A DNA stretch of 64,000 nucleotides from Bacteroidales bacterium (GCA_017443025.1 JAFSPG010000004.1:1030-65029), one strand, 5' to 3'; shown: positions 21,524 through 43,579, counted from the stretch's first letter. The notes: generated by a model not told the origin, from the sequence alone. A program made the numbers and translations.

Positions 21524-21945
21524 TTTCCTGTCATCGTATCGTACCCCGGCAGGGCGCTTTCAGCGGCGAATACGCAGTCTTCGCGTCTGTGGAATATCAT
21601 AGTTTTATTGCCGTTCGTAAGAACCAGCCATTTGACATTGAGAACCGAATTGTAGCGCATCGCCTGCCGGGCGGTTTCTTCGGTCAAATCGACATCCGGG
21701 CGCTTGCACTCGACTGTCATTACAGGATGCAAAGCCCTGTCATACACCACGATGTCGGCCCTGTAGCGCTTCTTCTTCGCTCCGGCGAGCCCGCCGATTT
21801 CTTCACCAAAGGTGAAAGCGACTTCGCTGCGCATCAGGCTGAGGGGCACTCCAGCTTCGTCGCGGAGCACGCCGATAAACCACTGACGGACACTTTCTTC
21901 AGGGGTCAGTGCAACGTTCTTCCGGCGAAGAGGGTCCCAAATCAT
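21520..21945 (-). CDS. Stand-alone HsdR N-terminal-domain protein
   Basis: IWDPLRRK.VALTPEE.VRQ, RADIVVY..VECK (PD-(D/E)xK-like), QAMRYN. Confidence 0.8.
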   Translation of the reverse strand: MIWDPLRRKNVALTPEESVRQWFIGVLRDEAGVPLSLMRSEVAFTFGEEIGGLAGAKKKRYRADIVVYDRALHPVMTVECKRPDVDLTEETARQAMRYNSVLNVKWLVLTNGNKTMIFHRREDCVFAAESALPGYDTMTGK

Positions 21946-22027
21946 CGACCAATGTTTTTATTTTCAATAAAACTACGCAAATATACGCATTTATTTATTA
22001 TTTTTGCGCTCGAAATCAGATATCCCG

Positions 22028-23698
22028 ATGATACAAGTCTTCTGCAAAAACACAGGTACCTACAGGAAGTATCCCGAGGGTACCTCCCTTCTGCAAATGC
22101 TCCCCGATTTTGAGTTCAGCCAGCCCCATCCCATTGTATCGGCCAAGGTCAACAATGTCTCGCAAGGCCTGAAGTTCAAAGTCTACAAAAGCAAGGACAT
22201 TGAATTCGTAAGCATAGGAGAAGCCAGCGGAATGCGCGTTTACTGCCGTTCGCTGTGCTTTTTGCTTTATAAGGCCTCCTGCGACGTCTTCCCCGGCAGC
22301 AAGCTCTACATAGAGTATCCCATCTCGAACGGTTATTTCTGCCATCTACACAAGGAAGACGACTCCCCTCTCACAAAGGACGATATCGCCCTTCTCGAAA
22401 AGAAGATGAGGGAAATCGTCGAGGCCGACGTCCCCTTCCACCGCTATGACGTACAGACCGAAAAGGTCCTCAAGATTTTCCGCGACGAAGGTTACGAAGA
22501 CAAAGTCAAGCTCCTCGAGACCAACGAGGAAGTCTATATGGACTACTACAAGCTGGAGGATACCATCGACTATTATTACGGCCGTCTCGTTCCCTCCACC
22601 GGATATCTGAAAATCTGGGGCATAGAGCCTTTCCGCGACGGCATCCTTCTGCGTCTCCCCGACAAGAATGACCCCTCACGCCTCGCTCCCGAGAACGACC
22701 AGCCCAAGACCTTCGAAATGTTCAACGAGCATCTGCGCTGGAACATCATCATGGGACTCAATACCGTCGGAGACGTGAACCAGGCCCTGAAGGCCGGCCA
22801 CGGCAGCGAGCTGATTCAGGTAGCAGAGGCTCTTCAGGAAAAGAAAATCATCCAGATTGCCGAAGAAATCAACAAGCGCTACCGCAGCGACAACCCTGTG
22901 CGCCTCGTCCTTATTACTGGCCCGTCGAGCAGCGGCAAGACCACCTTCTGCAAGAAACTGAGCGTGCAGCTCAAGGCCTGCGGACTGAAGCCCATCTCGG
23001 TATCGACCGACGATTATTTCGTAAACCGCGTCGACACCCCCAAGTTCCCCGACGGCAGCTACGACTTCGATAATTTCGATACCGTCGACCACGACATGAT
23101 GGAGGCCGACCTCATTAAGGTCCTCTCCGGCGAGGAAGTATCCGTACCCGAATACAACTTCGTTACCGGTATGCGAGAGTTCAACGGAAAGACTTTGAAG
23201 ATGGAGCGCGGCAGCATCCTCCTCGTTGAAGGTATCCACGCCTTGAATCCCGCCCTGACCTCGCATATCGACGAGAGCAAGAAATACCGTATCTTCATCA
23301 ATACCCTTACGAATACATCCCTCGACTACCACAACTGGATTCCCACGAGCGACAACCGCCTGCTCAGGCGAATCATCAGGGATTACAACAAGGGTGCATA
23401 TACGCCCCGCGAGTCGATCAGCCAGTGGCCCAAGGTCTGCGAGGCGGAGGACAAGTGGATTTATCCTTTCCAGGAGATGGCGGACGCGATGTTCAACTCG
23501 GCTTACCTGCTGGAATTCGCAGTGCTTCGCAATCACGCCGAGCAGATTCTGGCCTGCGTGCCGAAGAACTGCGCGGAATACAGCGAGGCGCACCGTCTGC
23601 TGAAGTTCATCCACTACTTCACTCCTGTTTCCGACAAGGAAATCCCGCCCACCTCAATGCTCCGCGAATTCGTCGGCGGTTCAAGCTTTCATTACTAA
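22028..23698 (+). CDS. Nucleoside/uridine kinase with N-terminal TGS and ThrRS-like domains
   Basis: SAKVNN (TGS), DYYYGRLVPSTG, GPSSSGKTT, LLVEGIHALNP, DNRLLRRIIRD; start at ATG 22028. Confidence 0.85.
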   Translation: MIQVFCKNTGTYRKYPEGTSLLQMLPDFEFSQPHPIVSAKVNNVSQGLKFKVYKSKDIEFVSIGEASGMRVYCRSLCFLLYKASCDVFPGSKLYIEYPISNGYFCHLHKEDDSPLTKDDIALLEKKMREIVEADVPFHRYDVQTEKVLKIFRDEGYEDKVKLLETNEEVYMDYYKLEDTIDYYYGRLVPSTGYLKIWGIEPFRDGILLRLPDKNDPSRLAPENDQPKTFEMFNEHLRWNIIMGLNTVGDVNQALKAGHGSELIQVAEALQEKKIIQIAEEINKRYRSDNPVRLVLITGPSSSGKTTFCKKLSVQLKACGLKPISVSTDDYFVNRVDTPKFPDGSYDFDNFDTVDHDMMEADLIKVLSGEEVSVPEYNFVTGMREFNGKTLKMERGSILLVEGIHALNPALTSHIDESKKYRIFINTLTNTSLDYHNWIPTSDNRLLRRIIRDYNKGAYTPRESISQWPKVCEAEDKWIYPFQEMADAMFNSAYLLEFAVLRNHAEQILACVPKNCAEYSEAHRLLKFIHYFTPVSDKEIPPTSMLREFVGGSSFHY

Positions 23699-23713
23699 CC
23701 GTGGCCGGTTAGT
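23694..23713 (+). terminator. Hairpin overlapping the kinase stop codon (possible terminator)
   Basis: Perfect 8-bp stem ACTAACCG-TGGC-CGGTTAGT; T run 10 nt downstream. Confidence 0.45.
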
Positions 23714-23730
23714 ACCGAAAACTTTTTAAT

Positions 23731-23790
23731 ACCGGGAGAAGGGTCTCCCAGACCCACTCTGTCGGGCTTCGCCCTCCGGCGCACAGAATA
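23731..23790. repeat. GC-rich structured intergenic module (second type; single copy in window)
   Basis: GGGTCT-CCC-AGACCC hairpin, and a TCTGT/ACAGA stem enclosing GGGC-TTC-GCCC. Confidence 0.45.
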
Positions 23791-23810
23791 TGTTTTTTAC
23801 CGGATGGAAA

Positions 23811-24013
23811 AATAATAAGTTGGTCTCTTTTAAGACTGTGGTCGCCCGTGACCGCATGAACCGACGCATGAGTGAGTAAAGAGTGAACTTGTTTACTCTT
23901 TCGAGCGAAAAGGAGGAAAAGGTCAAAGACCTTAACATTCGGGAGGGGCCCAACTTTAGTTGGGAGGGATAGGACCGAAGGTCCGTAGTCTATAAAAGAG
24001 ACCAGCTATTATT
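23811..24013 (+). repeat. Structured dispersed element, copy 1 (long form, REP/REPIN/MITE-like)
   Basis: Core ACTGTGGTCGCCCGTGACCGCATGAA (23835-23860) ... GGGAGGGGCCC..TGGGAGGGATAGGACCGAAGGTCCGTAGT (23941-23989) recurs at 41755-41827; enclosed by its own inverted repeat. Confidence 0.85.
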
Positions 24014-24039: not shown

Positions 24040-25712
<1,673 letters not shown>

Positions 25713-25716
<4 letters not shown>

Positions 25717-39685: not shown

Positions 39686-41155
39686 ATGAAATACGGGTTC
39701 GACAACGAGAAATATCTCAAAATCCAATCAGAACACATCAAGCAGCGCATCGCCACCTTCGGCGATAAACTCTACCTTGAATTCGGAGGCAAGCTCTTCG
39801 ACGACTTCCACGCCAGCAGGGTCCTTCCCGGTTTCGAGCCCGACAGCAAGCTGAAAATGCTCATGCAGATGAAAGATGATGCCGAAATCATCATCGTCAT
39901 CAGCGCGGTAGATATCGAGAAGAACAAGGTACGCGCCGACCTCGGCATCACCTACGACGTTGATGTACTTCGTCTGAGGGACGAATTCATCGACAGAGGC
40001 CTGAGCGTCAACAGCGTTGTCATAACCCACTACAACGGCCAGTCCAGCGCCGACGCCTATCGCAAGCGCCTCGAGAAGATGGGAATTAAAGTTTACTACC
40101 ATCATACCATCGAAGGTTACCCCAATAACGTCGCCCTGATTGACTCAGAAGAAGGCTTCGGCAAGAACGACTACGTGGTAACGACCAAGCCCCTCGTCGT
40201 AGTCACGGCCCCAGGCCCCGGCAGCGGCAAGATGGCAGTCTGCCTCAGTCAGCTTTACCAGGAGAATAAGCGCGGAATAAAGGCCGGATACGCCAAATTC
40301 GAGACCTTCCCCATCTGGAACCTTCCTCTCGCCCACCCCGTAAACATGGCCTACGAAGCTGCCACGGCCGATTTGGACGACGTCAACATGATTGACCCCT
40401 TCCACCTCGAAGCCTACGGCAAGACGGCAATAAACTATAATCGCGACATCGAGATATTCCCCGTAATGAACGCTCTCTTCGACGACATCTACGGAGAGAC
40501 TCCATACAAATCGCCCACCGATATGGGCGTTAATATGGCCGGCTACTGCATCTGCGACGACGAAGTATGCCAGGAAGCATCCAGGCAGGAAATAATCCGC
40601 AGATACTATACGGCCCTTTGCAGCCTCGCCAATGGCAAGGAAGCTGAAGGAGAGGTCAACAAAATCGTCCTTCTGATGAAGAGAGCAAAGATTACGACCG
40701 CCGACCGCAAGGCCACCGTCCCCGCAAAGGAAAGGCTCGAGAAATCTGGCTACGCCACAGCAGCCATCGAGCTCGCCGACGGCACGATTCTCACCGGCGA
40801 GACCAGCTCTCTGCTCGGCCCCAGCGCCGCCCTGCTGCTTAATGCCCTGAAGCATCTGGCAGGAATAGCCCACAACGTAAAACTCATCCCCCAGCAGATG
40901 ATTGAGCCCATCCAGACCACCAAGGTAACCTATCTGCATGGGCACAACCCTCGCCTTCACACAGACGAAGTGCTGGTGGCGATATCAATGATGAGCCTGA
41001 TAGACGAGAACTGCAAGCTTGCCCTGCAGCAGCTTCCCAACCTTAAAGGAGCGCAAGTCCACTCCACTGTAATGCTCAGCGAAGTGGACCGTAAAACTTT
41101 CAAGAAACTGGGAATCGACCTTACCTGCGATCCTGTAAGGAAAATCGTCCGATAA
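39686..41155 (+). CDS. DUF1846 family protein
   Basis: GFDNEKYL..QS.HI, LYLEFGGKLFDD.HASRVLPG, TAPGPGSGK, YAKFETFP, NPRLHTDEVL. Confidence 0.85.
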   Translation: MKYGFDNEKYLKIQSEHIKQRIATFGDKLYLEFGGKLFDDFHASRVLPGFEPDSKLKMLMQMKDDAEIIIVISAVDIEKNKVRADLGITYDVDVLRLRDEFIDRGLSVNSVVITHYNGQSSADAYRKRLEKMGIKVYYHHTIEGYPNNVALIDSEEGFGKNDYVVTTKPLVVVTAPGPGSGKMAVCLSQLYQENKRGIKAGYAKFETFPIWNLPLAHPVNMAYEAATADLDDVNMIDPFHLEAYGKTAINYNRDIEIFPVMNALFDDIYGETPYKSPTDMGVNMAGYCICDDEVCQEASRQEIIRRYYTALCSLANGKEAEGEVNKIVLLMKRAKITTADRKATVPAKERLEKSGYATAAIELADGTILTGETSSLLGPSAALLLNALKHLAGIAHNVKLIPQQMIEPIQTTKVTYLHGHNPRLHTDEVLVAISMMSLIDENCKLALQQLPNLKGAQVHSTVMLSEVDRKTFKKLGIDLTCDPVRKIVR

Positions 41156-41717
41156 TCCAGCGTCCTACTCTGGCAAAGGCATAACCGATTACAAGACCTA
41201 CTATAAAGCCTACAAGCACGTCGCCCAGAAAGTGCTTGCCGACGAATATGCGGCTGATTCCGACCAGAATCGCCCAGGAGAAAATGCACCAGCCGTAAAT
41301 CTTATACGAACGGGTAGTATCGTTCTTGAATCCGAGATAGGAGCATATTGCAAAGCCGAGGGCATTGGCGGCGTGTGCTGAGAAGAATCCGAAGTGATTG
41401 CCCTTCCCTTCAAGCATATGCAGGCCTCCTGCGACCATAAATTCATCCCAGCAGGGGCGTAACCTCGCTACCGAGTACTTAACCAGATTCCCGAGCTGGT
41501 CGCAGCAAGTTACGGTCAGTATGCACATGAACATCACCACAAGGGCCCTCTTCCATCCGAGATTCCAGAAGAAAAATCCAAGAATCACTGCATACATGAT
41601 AAACCATATCTTCTTCGCTGAGAAGAGCTGCCATACCGGATCCGTTATCGCGCTGTGCAACGAATTTATCGCCAACGTTACACGCTGGTCAATGCTATGT
41701 AAATCTTCGATAATCAT
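41121..41717 (-). CDS. PAP2 family phosphatase
   Basis: KYSVARLRP, FFSAHAA, SRIFVGKHF motifs; TM helices. Confidence 0.88.
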   Translation of the reverse strand: MIIEDLHSIDQRVTLAINSLHSAITDPVWQLFSAKKIWFIMYAVILGFFFWNLGWKRALVVMFMCILTVTCCDQLGNLVKYSVARLRPCWDEFMVAGGLHMLEGKGNHFGFFSAHAANALGFAICSYLGFKNDTTRSYKIYGWCIFSWAILVGISRIFVGKHFLGDVLVGFIVGLVIGYAFARVGRWIIGRFSLQDRR

Positions 41718-41730
41718 AACATTATATTAT

Positions 41731-41850
41731 TTATAAATTGGTACTGAAATAAAAACTGTGGTCGCCCATGACCGCATGAATGGGAGGGGCCCACGAAGTG
41801 GGAGGGATAGGCCCGAAGGGCCGTAGTTTTTATTCAGTATCAATTTATAA
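41731..41850 (+). repeat. Structured dispersed element, copy 2 (short form)
   Basis: Core 41755-41827 matches copy 1; enclosed by a ~27-bp inverted repeat TTATAAATTGGTACTGAAATAAAAACT / AGTTTTTATTCAGTATCAATTTATAA. Confidence 0.85.
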
Positions 41851-42909
41851 TACATGATTCTCAAGTTTCGATTTGGCGAAGGCGGCGGTGACGTGAACGG
41901 ACTTCTTCTTTGACGAAGGAGCATCGAACATGGCGTCGTCCAGAATCTTCTCGCAGATGGAACGCAGGCCACGGGCACCGAGCTTATTGCTAATGGCAGT
42001 ATCAACAATGATATCCATCGCCTCATCATCCACCTTGAAGGTAATCCCGTCCATCTTGAAAAGCCACTCATACTGTTTCAGAATGGCATTTCTGGGCTCC
42101 GTAAGTATACGCTTCAGGGCGGCCCTGTCGAGCTGGTCGAGATAAGTAATCACCGGCAGACGGCCGATAATCTCAGGAATGAGACCATATGTACGCAAAT
42201 CCTGGGCATTTACATACTGCAGGAGGTTATTCTTGTCGGCCACCGGCTTGTTCGAGGTACCGAAACCAATCACATTGGTATTGAGCCTCTGGGCAATGCT
42301 ACGCTCTATGCCCTCAAAAGCACCGCTGCAAATGAACAGGATGTTCTGAGTATTCACGTGAACGAAAGACTGCTCCGGATGCTTGCGCCCTCCCTTGGGA
42401 GGAACATTCACCACCGTGCCCTCGAGAAGCTTTAGCAAAGCCTGCTGAACGCCCTCGCCGGAGACATCCCTGGTAATCGAAGGATTGTCGCTCTTGCGGG
42501 CAATCTTGTCGATTTCGTCGATGAATACAATACCCTGCTCCGCCATGGCTACATTGTAATCGGCCTGCTCAAGCAGACGGGTCAGGATGCTTTCCACATC
42601 TTCGCCCACATAACCGGCCTCAGTCAGTACCGTAGCATCGACAATCGCAAACGGCACTTCCAGAAGCTTGGCAATGGTCCTGGCAAGGAGAGTCTTTCCG
42701 GTACCGGTAGGGCCGACGAGAAGCACATTCGACTTCTCCAGCTCCACTCCCGACTCCCCTACCAGCTGACTGTTGTGAATCAGGCGCTTATAGTGATTAT
42801 ATACAGCAACAGCGAGCTGTTTCTTAGCCCGCTCCTGCCCAATCACATAGCCGTCGAGATACTTTTTAATATCCTTGGGCGTGTAAATATGGACCTCTTT
42901 ATTTGCCAC
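41845..42909 (-). CDS. clpX: ATP-dependent Clp protease ATPase ClpX, lacking the N-terminal zinc-binding domain
   Basis: [48 protein letters not shown] loop, GARGLR; GTG start at 42909 is inferred (ATG 42933 is the alternative). Confidence 0.92.
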
Positions 42910-43579
42910 TTGCGCGTTTTTTGATGATTTCATCGACCATTCCGTAGTCGAGAGCCTCCTGCGCACTCATCCAGAAGTCGCGGTCGGCGTCGGCGAAGAC
43001 TTTGTCGAAGGGCTGGCCGCTGTGCTCTGAGATGATTTTGTAGAGCTCAGTACGGATTTTGTCGATTTCCTTTGCAGCAATGAGAATATCAGAAGCCTGA
43101 CCCTGTGCGCCGCCGAGAGGCTGATGAATCAGCACTCTGGCGTGCGGAAGGGCGGAACGCTTGCCGTGGGCGCCGGCGCACAGCAGCACCGAGCCCATCG
43201 AGGCGGCCATACCGGTAACGATAGTCTGCACGTCAGGCTCAACCAGCTGCATAGTATCGTATATAGCGAGGCCGGAAGACACCTGACCACCCGGAGTATT
43301 CAGATAAAGCGTAATATCGGCAGAACTGTCCTGGGAGGCCAGGAAAAGCAGCTGAGCCTGGACGATATTTGCAACGTCATCATCAATAGGCACTCCAAGG
43401 AAGATGATTCTGTCCATCATAAGGCGGCTGAACACGTCCATGCTGGCTACGTTCAGCTTGCGCTCCTCGATGATGGTAGGATTGATATATGCATCGAGGG
43501 CGGACTGGTAGCGGTGAAGGGTCGCCGAGGAGATTCCCCTGCCCTTGTTGGCGTATTTGTTGAATTCGTTGCTGTTCAT
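42899..43579 (-). CDS. clpP: ATP-dependent Clp protease proteolytic subunit
   Basis: [21 protein letters not shown](Ser)MG, HQPLGG, DRDFWM. Confidence 0.97.

Follow-up and report, generated by a model that had tools for sequence, protein, structure and literature searches.

We consider it moderately probable that the two long palindromes in this DNA are the outer stems of a non-autonomous hairpin repeat resembling REPINs or Rickettsia palindromic elements (RPEs), and that the arms of each copy are kept paired by arm-to-arm exchange. The window, a 64,000-nt stretch from a Bacteroidales bacterium (GCA_017443025.1 JAFSPG010000004.1:1030-65029), holds two copies: copy 1 between a nucleoside kinase gene and ettA, and copy 2 between clpX and a PAP2-family phosphatase gene. 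The features of both copies and their neighbors are:

41731..41757, + strand: copy 2, 5' (left) arm of the outer stem, TTATAAATTGGTACTGAAATAAAAACT, pairing with 41825-41850
41758..41824, + strand: copy 2, conserved GC-rich core, 67 nt (nhmmer, 38 bits)
41760-41773: copy 2 core, hairpin 1, with loop CCCAT (41765-41769) able to pair with ATGGG (41780-41784)
41782-41789: copy 2 core, GGGAGGGG
41790-41802: copy 2 core, hairpin 2
41810-41822: copy 2 core, hairpin 3
41825..41850, + strand: copy 2, 3' (right) arm, AGTTTTTATTCAGTATCAATTTATAA
23811..23837, + strand: copy 1, 5' arm, AATAATAAGTTGGTCTCTTTTAAGACT
23838..23986, + strand: copy 1, core including an optional 80-nt expansion domain
23861-23940: copy 1, expansion domain, between hairpin 1 and GGGAGGGG
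23987..24013, + strand: copy 1, 3' arm, AGTCTATAAAAGAGACCAGCTATTATT
41845..42933, - strand: clpX, 362 aa in public annotation, with its final codons inside the copy 2 arm
41121..41717, - strand: PAP2-family phosphatase gene, downstream of clpX
22028..23698, + strand: nucleoside kinase (PRK family) gene, upstream of copy 1
24040..25716, + strand: ettA (ABC-F), downstream of copy 1

Each copy is enclosed by its own long palindrome. An earlier sequence-only reading had proposed this, and its coordinates, the one G-T pair and one bulge in the copy 2 stem, and the clpX stop codon in the copy 2 right arm (41845-41847, minus strand) were all confirmed. That arm also includes the last two sense codons of clpX. 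The left arm comes within 13 nt of the PAP2 start codon (41715-41717, minus strand), and copy 2 fills most of the 127-nt clpX-PAP2 spacer. The kinase-ettA spacer measures 341 nt here and has a lineage-specific length. Folded as single-stranded DNA, the 126-nt unit of copy 2 reached -26.6 kcal/mol (z = -6.15; equaled by 0 of 200 shuffles), and the opposite strand reached -23.6 kcal/mol. The core loop and its partner covary across copies (CCCGT/ACGGG, CCCAT/ATGGG and CCCTC/GAGGG). We observed the 80-nt expansion of copy 1 also in the copies at C7:41718 and C11:15081 and in strain L132; at one locus this domain is present or absent between strains. Many copies have a GTAG motif at the junction of core and 3' arm. 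Rfam scans by gathering score and by E-value assigned no family to either copy: the window contained only two tRNAs at gathering score, and the sole match around both copies at E <= 10 was a spurious miRNA on the stem.

We counted copies in the 1.66-Mb assembly of this genome (G000) by a core regular expression or by an nhmmer profile, which gave 23 and 27 copies, respectively. Own inverted arms flanked the core in all 23 regular-expression copies. An exact-pattern scan of one genome per species located 44 loci in other MAGs, each with its own stem, and the arrangement seen at the two window copies is general. All 44 loci came from rumen or gut Bacteroidales MAGs, several of them named Candidatus Cryptobacteroides. 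Among 150 other genomes of the genus, 97 contained 1-41 copies and 53 contained none (reversed-pattern control, ~0). The unit, a stem plus a GC-rich core, is about 120-200 nt long. Within G000 it falls into subfamilies A1 (mostly intergenic, including both window copies), A2 (genic) and A3, and a related B type.

Nearly half of the G000 copies (11/23) lie in frame within 10 protein genes, in either orientation relative to the gene. The host genes are xseA, dapF, murF, truB, trmB, a spoU-like methyltransferase gene, citX, a citG-like fusion (two copies), a DUF1343/namZ-like gene and a gene for a 4Fe-4S (ferredoxin-like) protein. The in-frame indels leave the frame open (75, 117 and 123 nt, and about 108 nt net in murF). 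In the A2 core, five of the six reading frames lack stop codons, and both orientations are therefore translated. The core avoids stop codons only modestly, with 4.05 frames open as against 3.57 after shuffling.

Arms match their own partners far better than they match other arms. Across 67 distinct copies, the stem had a median of 23 matched bp. The local alignment score of an arm with its own partner had a median of 16.5, compared to a control median of 7.0 (95th percentile 9.0) when arms were swapped between copies, and likewise for random places in the genome. The arms are not identical across copies and are not ordinary terminal inverted repeats, as the sequence-only reading had held. Arm identity was 0.76 at a core identity of >=97%, 0.66 at 90-97% and 0.57 at 80-90%, and below 80% it was at the shuffled level (0.47). 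Arm similarity follows core similarity and decays faster. Copies of one subfamily at separate loci, such as C17:148936, C11:40109 and C11:15081, have about 30 nt of arm in common, and the arms of copy 1 are homologous to those of C7:41718 and C14:57062 with compensated differences. The arms of the two window copies both contain ...TTGGT... and an inner AAAAC/ACT. They look "unrelated" because two distant family members were being compared; that earlier description applies to distant pairs and breaks down within subfamilies.

The composition of the arms varies with their surroundings. With the conserved inner 6 nt of the arm left out, arm GC was 0.43 where the flanks are AT-rich, rising to 0.67 where they are GC-rich (r = 0.51), and core GC was 0.64-0.70 throughout. 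Arm GC follows the local flanks, and the earlier description of the palindromes as AT-rich is therefore true only for intergenic copies. Among arm mismatches in G000, read on the element-forward strand, 17 were of G-T type and 1 was of A-C type (P = 1.4e-4). This excess suggests that the relevant fold forms on the top strand of the element as a single strand. The asymmetry was weak in other genomes (16 versus 11). Wobble asymmetry of this kind could possibly reflect mutational bias.

We compared alleles of the element at the same locus. At clpX-PAP2, contigs with ClpX 98.9% and ~92% identical carried the element in the same place and orientation as a different allele. The arms of the window copy and of strain L132 have diverged at 12 and 10 positions. 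Paired with its own partner, an allele shows 0-1 non-wobble mismatches (1 for window versus L132); with the arms crossed between alleles, the number is 8-10 (10 for window versus L132). Same-locus copies showed up to 12 arm differences, nearly all of them compensated, with 0-2 non-wobble mismatches per copy, and the compensated pattern was also observed in L055/L098, L099/L100 and L076/L078. The ClpX C-terminus reads ...ENHVL here, ...ENQLI in strains with the other arm allele, and ...ENS[LI] in other species, with the stop codon following in each. L132 and L134 have their arms in common, and only L132 carries the expansion. The L132 core is nearer to G000 copy 1 (93.8%) than to copy 2, which suggests that cores were exchanged between copies while the arms stayed with the locus. 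L085 and L093 have identical cores (100% over 80 nt) and arms only ~60% alike. For this pair, simple co-divergence needs a strong constraint on the core or core exchange, a point against the main reading.

The core can be inverted in place. In xseA, within the same species, G000 and L138/L139 have identical 25-nt arms around a 79-nt core that is exactly reverse-complemented at the DNA level. This in-place inversion between identical arms is new here. The two XseA protein forms were found on 12 and 9 contigs, the flipped form on nine. Since the arms (~25 bp) are probably shorter than the assembly k-mers used, misassembly is unlikely. A Y-to-V change in XseA varies with the arm. A second flip was observed between species in a lipoprotein gene, where the core is forward in L086 and reversed in L057/L079 and the arms are homologous. 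At dapF site 2, ~96%-identical strains carry opposite orientations, and the outer arms differ there. Flipping is not frequent: it was found at 1 of about 9 loci compared at strain level, and seven other host-gene clusters, with 4-17 strain-level members each, were in a single orientation. An exact inversion of the core between identical arms means that the arms interact. Together with the compensated same-locus changes, this inversion supports the third option of the sequence-only reading, in which the arms co-evolve, as would be expected of hairpin-templated repair.

We next set filled against empty alleles in five comparisons, two of them by protein alignments only. At dapF site 1, G000 is empty and reads CGCTTCGGT, ACA and GATGGCTTG in succession; two ~96%-identical contigs are filled. 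The insert holds both 19-nt arms and 20 further nt on the 5' side of the element, with ACA replaced and no duplication. A 3-bp extension (GGT/ACC) is found on the 3' side, and one of the two filled contigs carries the expansion domain. At the xseA site, 25 species of the genus have 7 residues, compared to 45 in G000. Within the species, 98.5%-identical alleles are empty (ICKT directly followed by APVDAV), and the indel is 117 nt with a direct repeat CCG at its borders. What is left of the arms in the empty allele is 4 nt on the 5' side and 9 nt (GCACCGGTT) on the 3' side; the insert starts with GGGTGC, which pairs with the retained host GCACC. The outgroup L141 (96-99% identical) has GCGACTCCTTCCGGCGCCCCGTAC at the same position; the xseA empty allele therefore differs by a 9-nt deletion and several substitutions, all of which fall within 20 nt.

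The other three comparisons concern truB, murF and the ferredoxin-like gene. Throughout the genus, the truB loop that precedes CSKGTYIRA is a hot spot for insertions. There, L100 is filled and L101 is empty with near-identical flanks; the indel is 123 nt, and L101 retains 10-18 nt of the 3' arm, the inverted partner of which is within the indel. At murF, eight 96-98%-identical alleles are empty (KALAAL-REGSS-IHWH). They retain KALAA, which is GCTGGCCGCT in G000 and belongs to the outer part of the 3' arm, and the partner of this stretch, GCGGCCAGC, falls inside the indel. The never-filled murF of L145 has the homologous GCGCTTGAGGCT. In the 4Fe-4S (ferredoxin-like) gene, which carries a B-type copy, a 75-nt indel is bordered by GCGGAG. 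GATG at the 5' end of the insert pairs with host CATC, and the empty allele forms a 7-bp stem with a 4-nt loop in a protein-level comparison read on G000 DNA.

These comparisons show that the whole hairpin can be the unit of an indel, and we infer the direction of each indel, insertion or excision. In four of the five (xseA, truB, murF and ferredoxin-like), the palindrome extends 7-18 nt past the indel on the 3' side of the element. The 5' side was never retained alone. In both xseA and murF, the native site includes CCTTCCGG, which is the 3' end of the element in reverse complement; the native dapF site contains CGGTAC, which likewise matches the 3' end of its element (n = 3). A general rule that what remains of the outer arm is native host sequence does not hold at dapF site 1. 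No consistent target-site duplication was found (junction microhomology of 0, 2, 3 or 6 nt at four sites), in keeping with the sequence-only reading.

The sequence-only reading had pointed to the orthologous spacers of the two window copies, and only one of them yielded empty sites. At kinase-ettA, the site of copy 1, the two genes are 3 nt apart in G136, and the ~100-nt spacers of G128 and G004 hold neither the element nor its arms. A look-up by identical protein returned an identical spacer; empty sites were found at species level only. At clpX-PAP2, no empty allele was found among the contigs compared. Four contigs with an identical PAP2 protein had an identical spacer, all seven contigs from relatives with 90-99% ClpX identity were filled, and species-level relatives were not syntenic. 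Across the empty or never-filled sites (dapF site 1, murF of L145, xseA of L141, and kinase-ettA of G136, G128 and G004), no long palindrome was present. Residual inverted repeats were 4-7 bp only, in the xseA and ferredoxin-like empty alleles.

We assessed candidate mobilizing enzymes. G000 contains two Y1 HUH genes, at C15:79409-80329 and on C6 at about 21.6-22.5 kb, both encoding HxH and Y motifs. Among NCBIfam families they come closest to the REP-associated tyrosine transposase (NF047646), scoring 42.9 and 21.8 bits where the cut-off is 80, and their PF01797 match is just above cut-off. A third PF01797 match (C17:212968) was a cytidylate-kinase-like false positive. Of the 97 genomes with the element, 69 had a homologue of the C15 Y1 gene, as did 11 of the 53 that lack the element (odds ratio 9.4, P = 3e-9, with kinship and MAG incompleteness ignored). 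No Y1 homologue was detected in 6 genomes with >=10 element copies. Y1 genes reach up to 8 copies per genome, and the element is not adjacent to either Y1 gene in G000.

On the reading that we prefer, the element is a Cryptobacteroides hairpin repeat whose gains and losses are block events, both in spacers and, in frame, in coding sequence. The sequence constraint would fall on the core alone, presumably through recognition by a trans-acting protein. A stem that must only pair would therefore drift quickly and adopt the local base composition, and its arms would remain complementary because they interact physically. Arm-to-arm exchange, by recombination or by template switching within the hairpin, would transfer changes between the arms and would occasionally invert the core in place. 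Inversion requires the arms to pair or recombine, which is the same contact that would copy changes; we therefore propose exchange, together with selection on the top-strand fold, for the private palindromes. The folding strand would most likely be DNA at the replication fork, and the element would pass through a single-stranded DNA intermediate. A RAYT-like Y1 (HUH) transposase would be the likely mobilizing enzyme, and exchange, over selection alone, the probable homogenizing force. Since only 1 of about 9 loci showed a flip, exchange alone may be too rare to account for near-perfect arms.

A different account of the stems starts from the host DNA beside them. Here the outer 3' arm would be host DNA, and the element would show polar flank templating or guide-like targeting. 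The mobile intermediate would consist of core, inner stem and a 5' tail; either the host flank would be copied in inverted form to give the 5' side, or targets able to pair would be picked by the 5' tail. The palindrome might then grow outward by templated correction, overwriting adjacent host codons. We regard this account as possible but unlikely. The 3'-arm stretches that lie outside the indels agree with it, namely GCACCGGTT in the xseA empty allele with GGGTGC facing host GCACC, the 10-18 nt kept by truB L101, and murF, where GCTGGCCGCT has a homologue in the never-filled allele and its partner is inside the indel. So do the GATG/CATC pairing in the ferredoxin-like gene and the 3-bp GGT/ACC extension at dapF site 1, which is on the same side. 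The correlation of arm GC with flank GC, the variation of the ClpX C-terminus and of XseA Y-to-V with the arm, and the matches of CCTTCCGG and CGGTAC in native sites to element 3' ends point the same way. The 3'-arm part outside the indel, native-like at murF, fits flank templating better than it fits our main reading. Against it, the 19-nt arms at dapF site 1 are wholly within the insert, subfamily copies at different loci have ~30-nt arms in common, and the xseA empty allele resembles an excision scar and not a virgin site. Retained arm ends can also be footprints, as REPIN excision leaves ~6 bp of the 3' end (PMC3116915), and the number of comparisons is small (five, two by protein alignments alone). 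Flank copying, the second option of the sequence-only reading, is possible on the four comparisons in which part of the 3' arm is outside the indel and finds no support at dapF site 1. Retention of 3'-arm ends can be read in two ways, as an asymmetric excision footprint or as a stem for which host DNA served as the template or as the match that was selected. The murF outgroup, the tracking of flanks by arm GC, and CCTTCCGG/CGGTAC (n = 3) favor the host-DNA stem, whereas the scarred xseA empty allele and dapF site 1 favor the excision footprint. The stronger proposal, that each new copy builds or chooses its outer stem from 3'-side host DNA, then self-corrects and can flip its core, seems to us rather doubtful. 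If true, this would be a dispersed family of self-made, locus-specific invertible hairpins recoding essential proteins, and target-templated or tail-guided insertion would be a mode of transposition and inversion undescribed for any bacterial repeat.

Three further explanations fit parts of the data. The copies could be programmed intragenic or intergenic invertons, with arms that serve as sites for a host invertase and a flip that acts as a regulated switch of recoding or expression. The exact in-place inversions in xseA and the lipoprotein gene, the open frames in both orientations (5/6 for the A2 core) and the many invertases of Bacteroidales, where intragenic invertons have been described (PMC10028968), are in line with this. 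We nevertheless judge it improbable: arm sequences differ at every locus, so the inverted repeats have no common recognition motif; the seven other host-gene clusters are single-orientation; the inserts are in variable loops of housekeeping enzymes with no obvious use for recoding; and copy number ranges from 0 to 41 among species, as in mobile repeats. A structured non-coding RNA gene family, in which the outer helix is a functional RNA stem and covariation comes from selection on the RNA, would account for the compensated changes in the stem and core hairpins, the covarying pseudoknot, the tolerance of G-T on one strand and the optional expansion domain, which is common in RNAs. It would not be expected to have 11 copies within 10 protein genes, running with or against the gene, to flip its core in place or to differ in presence between strains. 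Stems of 25-30 near-perfect bp also exceed what RNA selection usually maintains, Rfam gave no match, and we think such a family quite improbable. The first option of the sequence-only reading, insertion into loops of host hairpins already in place, for example terminators, draws on the intergenic copies at gene ends, where terminators are expected, on the 7-bp stem and 4-nt loop of the ferredoxin-like empty allele, and on a 4-5-bp inverted repeat in the xseA empty allele. It is contradicted at four sites that have no long palindrome (dapF site 1, the native site in murF, the outgroup for xseA, and the kinase-ettA junctions). The arms common to subfamily copies also speak against it, as do the 25-30-bp perfect palindromes, which would be unexpected within coding loops. 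We find this option highly improbable.

The exchange reading places the element among several known systems. By analogy, its single-strand hairpin and candidate RAYT-like enzyme may make it act as a REPIN does, and its in-frame insertion resembles that of an RPE. RPEs were reportedly described by Ogata et al. in 2000. They are palindromic repeats of 100-150 bp that occur in frame in housekeeping genes, are translated as extra loops, and are also intergenic; the family described here likewise consists of in-frame palindromic repeats that leave the reading frame open. RPEs differ in having a whole-length consensus, compared to the copy- and locus-specific arms here. Homology to RPEs is not expected because the phyla differ. 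We know of no report of in-place inversion or strain-level gain and loss for RPEs. Hairpin-bounded small inversions occur in plastid non-coding DNA, where the loop between short inverted repeats inverts exactly, and quasipalindrome correction in E. coli makes imperfect palindromes perfect by intramolecular template switching. Template switching of this type would explain both the flip/flop and the compensated arms without a dedicated enzyme, but quasipalindrome events are sporadic at ordinary hairpins and involve no mobile family with a conserved structured core. RPEs are also mentioned in PMC1779305.

REPINs are hairpins with compensatory changes and asymmetric excision (Bertels & Rainey 2011, PMC3116915). 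On excision, a few bp of the 3' end stay behind and a 5' tail goes along (PMC3116915), and REPIN intermediates have been proposed to choose pairable targets by this tail. Like the REPIN/REP-RAYT system (PMC3116915; PMC8266576), the present family is a short non-autonomous repeat that folds as one long single-strand hairpin with compensatory changes across it, has no classical terminal inverted repeats or target-site duplication, and occurs in a genome with Y1 HUH genes whose best family match is RAYT; the GTAG motif noted above for many copies is a further likeness. Unlike REPINs, in which the arms are the conserved REP and the spacer is variable, it has a conserved, pseudoknotted center of ~70 nt and variable arms. 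REPINs are extragenic, whereas 11 of 23 copies here are in frame within genes. RAYT genes are usually single-copy and REP-flanked, whereas the Y1 genes here are below cut-off, multi-copy in some genomes and unflanked in G000. Intragenic invertons of Bacteroides (Chanin et al., PMC10028968) also consist of an in-gene segment between inverted repeats, with both orientations and frame-preserving recoding. Those are single loci, presumed to be flipped by an invertase and heterogeneous in clonal cultures, whereas here a dispersed repeat family has locus-specific inverted repeats and flips between strains or species at 2 loci. IS200/IS605 elements and PATEs transpose strand-specifically as single strands by a hairpin-reading Y1 HUH enzyme without target-site duplication, and the IS200/IS605 target motif is related to the element-end motif, comparable to CCTTCCGG and CGGTAC (n = 3) here. 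They have two small subterminal hairpins and tetra- or pentanucleotide targets, in contrast to the one large hairpin here, with no fixed target established. Classical MITEs, such as Correia elements (PMC10969869), are likewise small, non-coding, dispersed repeats with inverted ends that are occasionally in genes, but they have conserved terminal inverted repeats and a fixed target-site duplication, neither of which was found here.

REP, REPIN and RPE hairpin repeats are common, and their mode of movement and the perfection of their stems are old puzzles. In this family, filled, empty and flipped states can be compared at single loci in near-identical strains. Its conserved center and free-running stems make arm-to-arm exchange, polar excision or insertion, and the responsibility of a RAYT-like Y1 enzyme testable. 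Dispersed repeats of this kind can make recoding inversions in housekeeping genes such as xseA, and they can rewrite neighboring host codons, as at the ClpX C-terminus. Both points bear on the annotation of thousands of rumen and gut Bacteroidales MAGs.

The end of clpX lies within the right arm of copy 2 of the element, the mobile hairpin repeat with a GC-rich core and copy-specific inverted arms.

Window 41845-41856: 3' end of clpX, where the final three ClpX residues vary with the arm allele.

We observed that ClpX terminates in HVL before the stop codon in the window, in QLI in relatives of 90-99% identity, and in S[LI] in other species. As these terminal residues change with the arm allele, the element has recoded the C-terminus of an essential protein.

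Strain differences were also observed in trmB (C17:161405 in G000, the genome holding the window; proteins P0287-P0292). Compared to G000, related strains carried 13 additional residues (TGCHAVQSLQAGP) beside the B-type copy, and one strain lacked 3 residues in the B-type core. The element and its immediate surroundings thus accumulate small indels. The citG-like fusion gene of G000 (679 aa) contained two copies in opposite orientations (C5:21714 and C5:23155), one of B type, the other an A2-type copy that contains a different expansion domain. The truB loop preceding CSKGTYIRA was an insertion hot spot (G000 C17:27251; truB loci L099-L128). Across many species this loop was occupied by A-type copies, B-type copies or other inserts, in both orientations, and its length varied by more than 60 residues.

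The candidate mobilizing enzymes of the element are RAYT-like Y1 transposases, present in G000 as two genes.

C15:79409-80329: RAYT-like Y1 gene with a C-terminal extension of ~170 aa.
C6 ~21640-22500: RAYT-like Y1 gene with a C-terminal extension of ~170 aa.

Unlike classical RAYTs, which are single-copy, these Y1 genes were multi-copy in some species of the genus-wide comparison, with up to 8 per genome.

Further repeats were found upstream of copy 1.

Window 23699-23810: 112-nt stretch from the kinase stop codon to copy 1, with more GC-rich inverted repeats, e.g. GGGAGAAGGGTCTCCC and CGGGCTTCGCCC.

These inverted repeats, which the spacers of other species lacked, may be what is left of different repeats.

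Around dapF, G000 was compared to L129 and L130, two contigs ~96% identical to it that carry an extra dapF insert. On C7 of G000 (reverse strand), an additional 24-nt copy of ATGTCATTTCGACCGAG... preceded the dapF start by ~60 nt. This copy was a tandem duplication of a different small repeat (translation ..SFRPSEAS..), and both L129 and L130 lacked the duplication. The G000 and L129 sequences parted directly past the dapF stop codon, and L129 carried an rve-family integrase gene ~600 nt downstream of dapF (L129:3141-4068). Other short in-frame repeat families occupied the same protein loops as the element (L129/L130; dapF relatives P0003-P0034; L026, the xseA locus of another genome, G067).

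In translation, these families appeared repeatedly in different species as CHPERSEGS, SFAGLTGES, STTPAHA, KKCPRNSF and MPDLIGHL. Small palindromic inserts of several sorts, besides the element, are thus abundant in the proteins of this genus.
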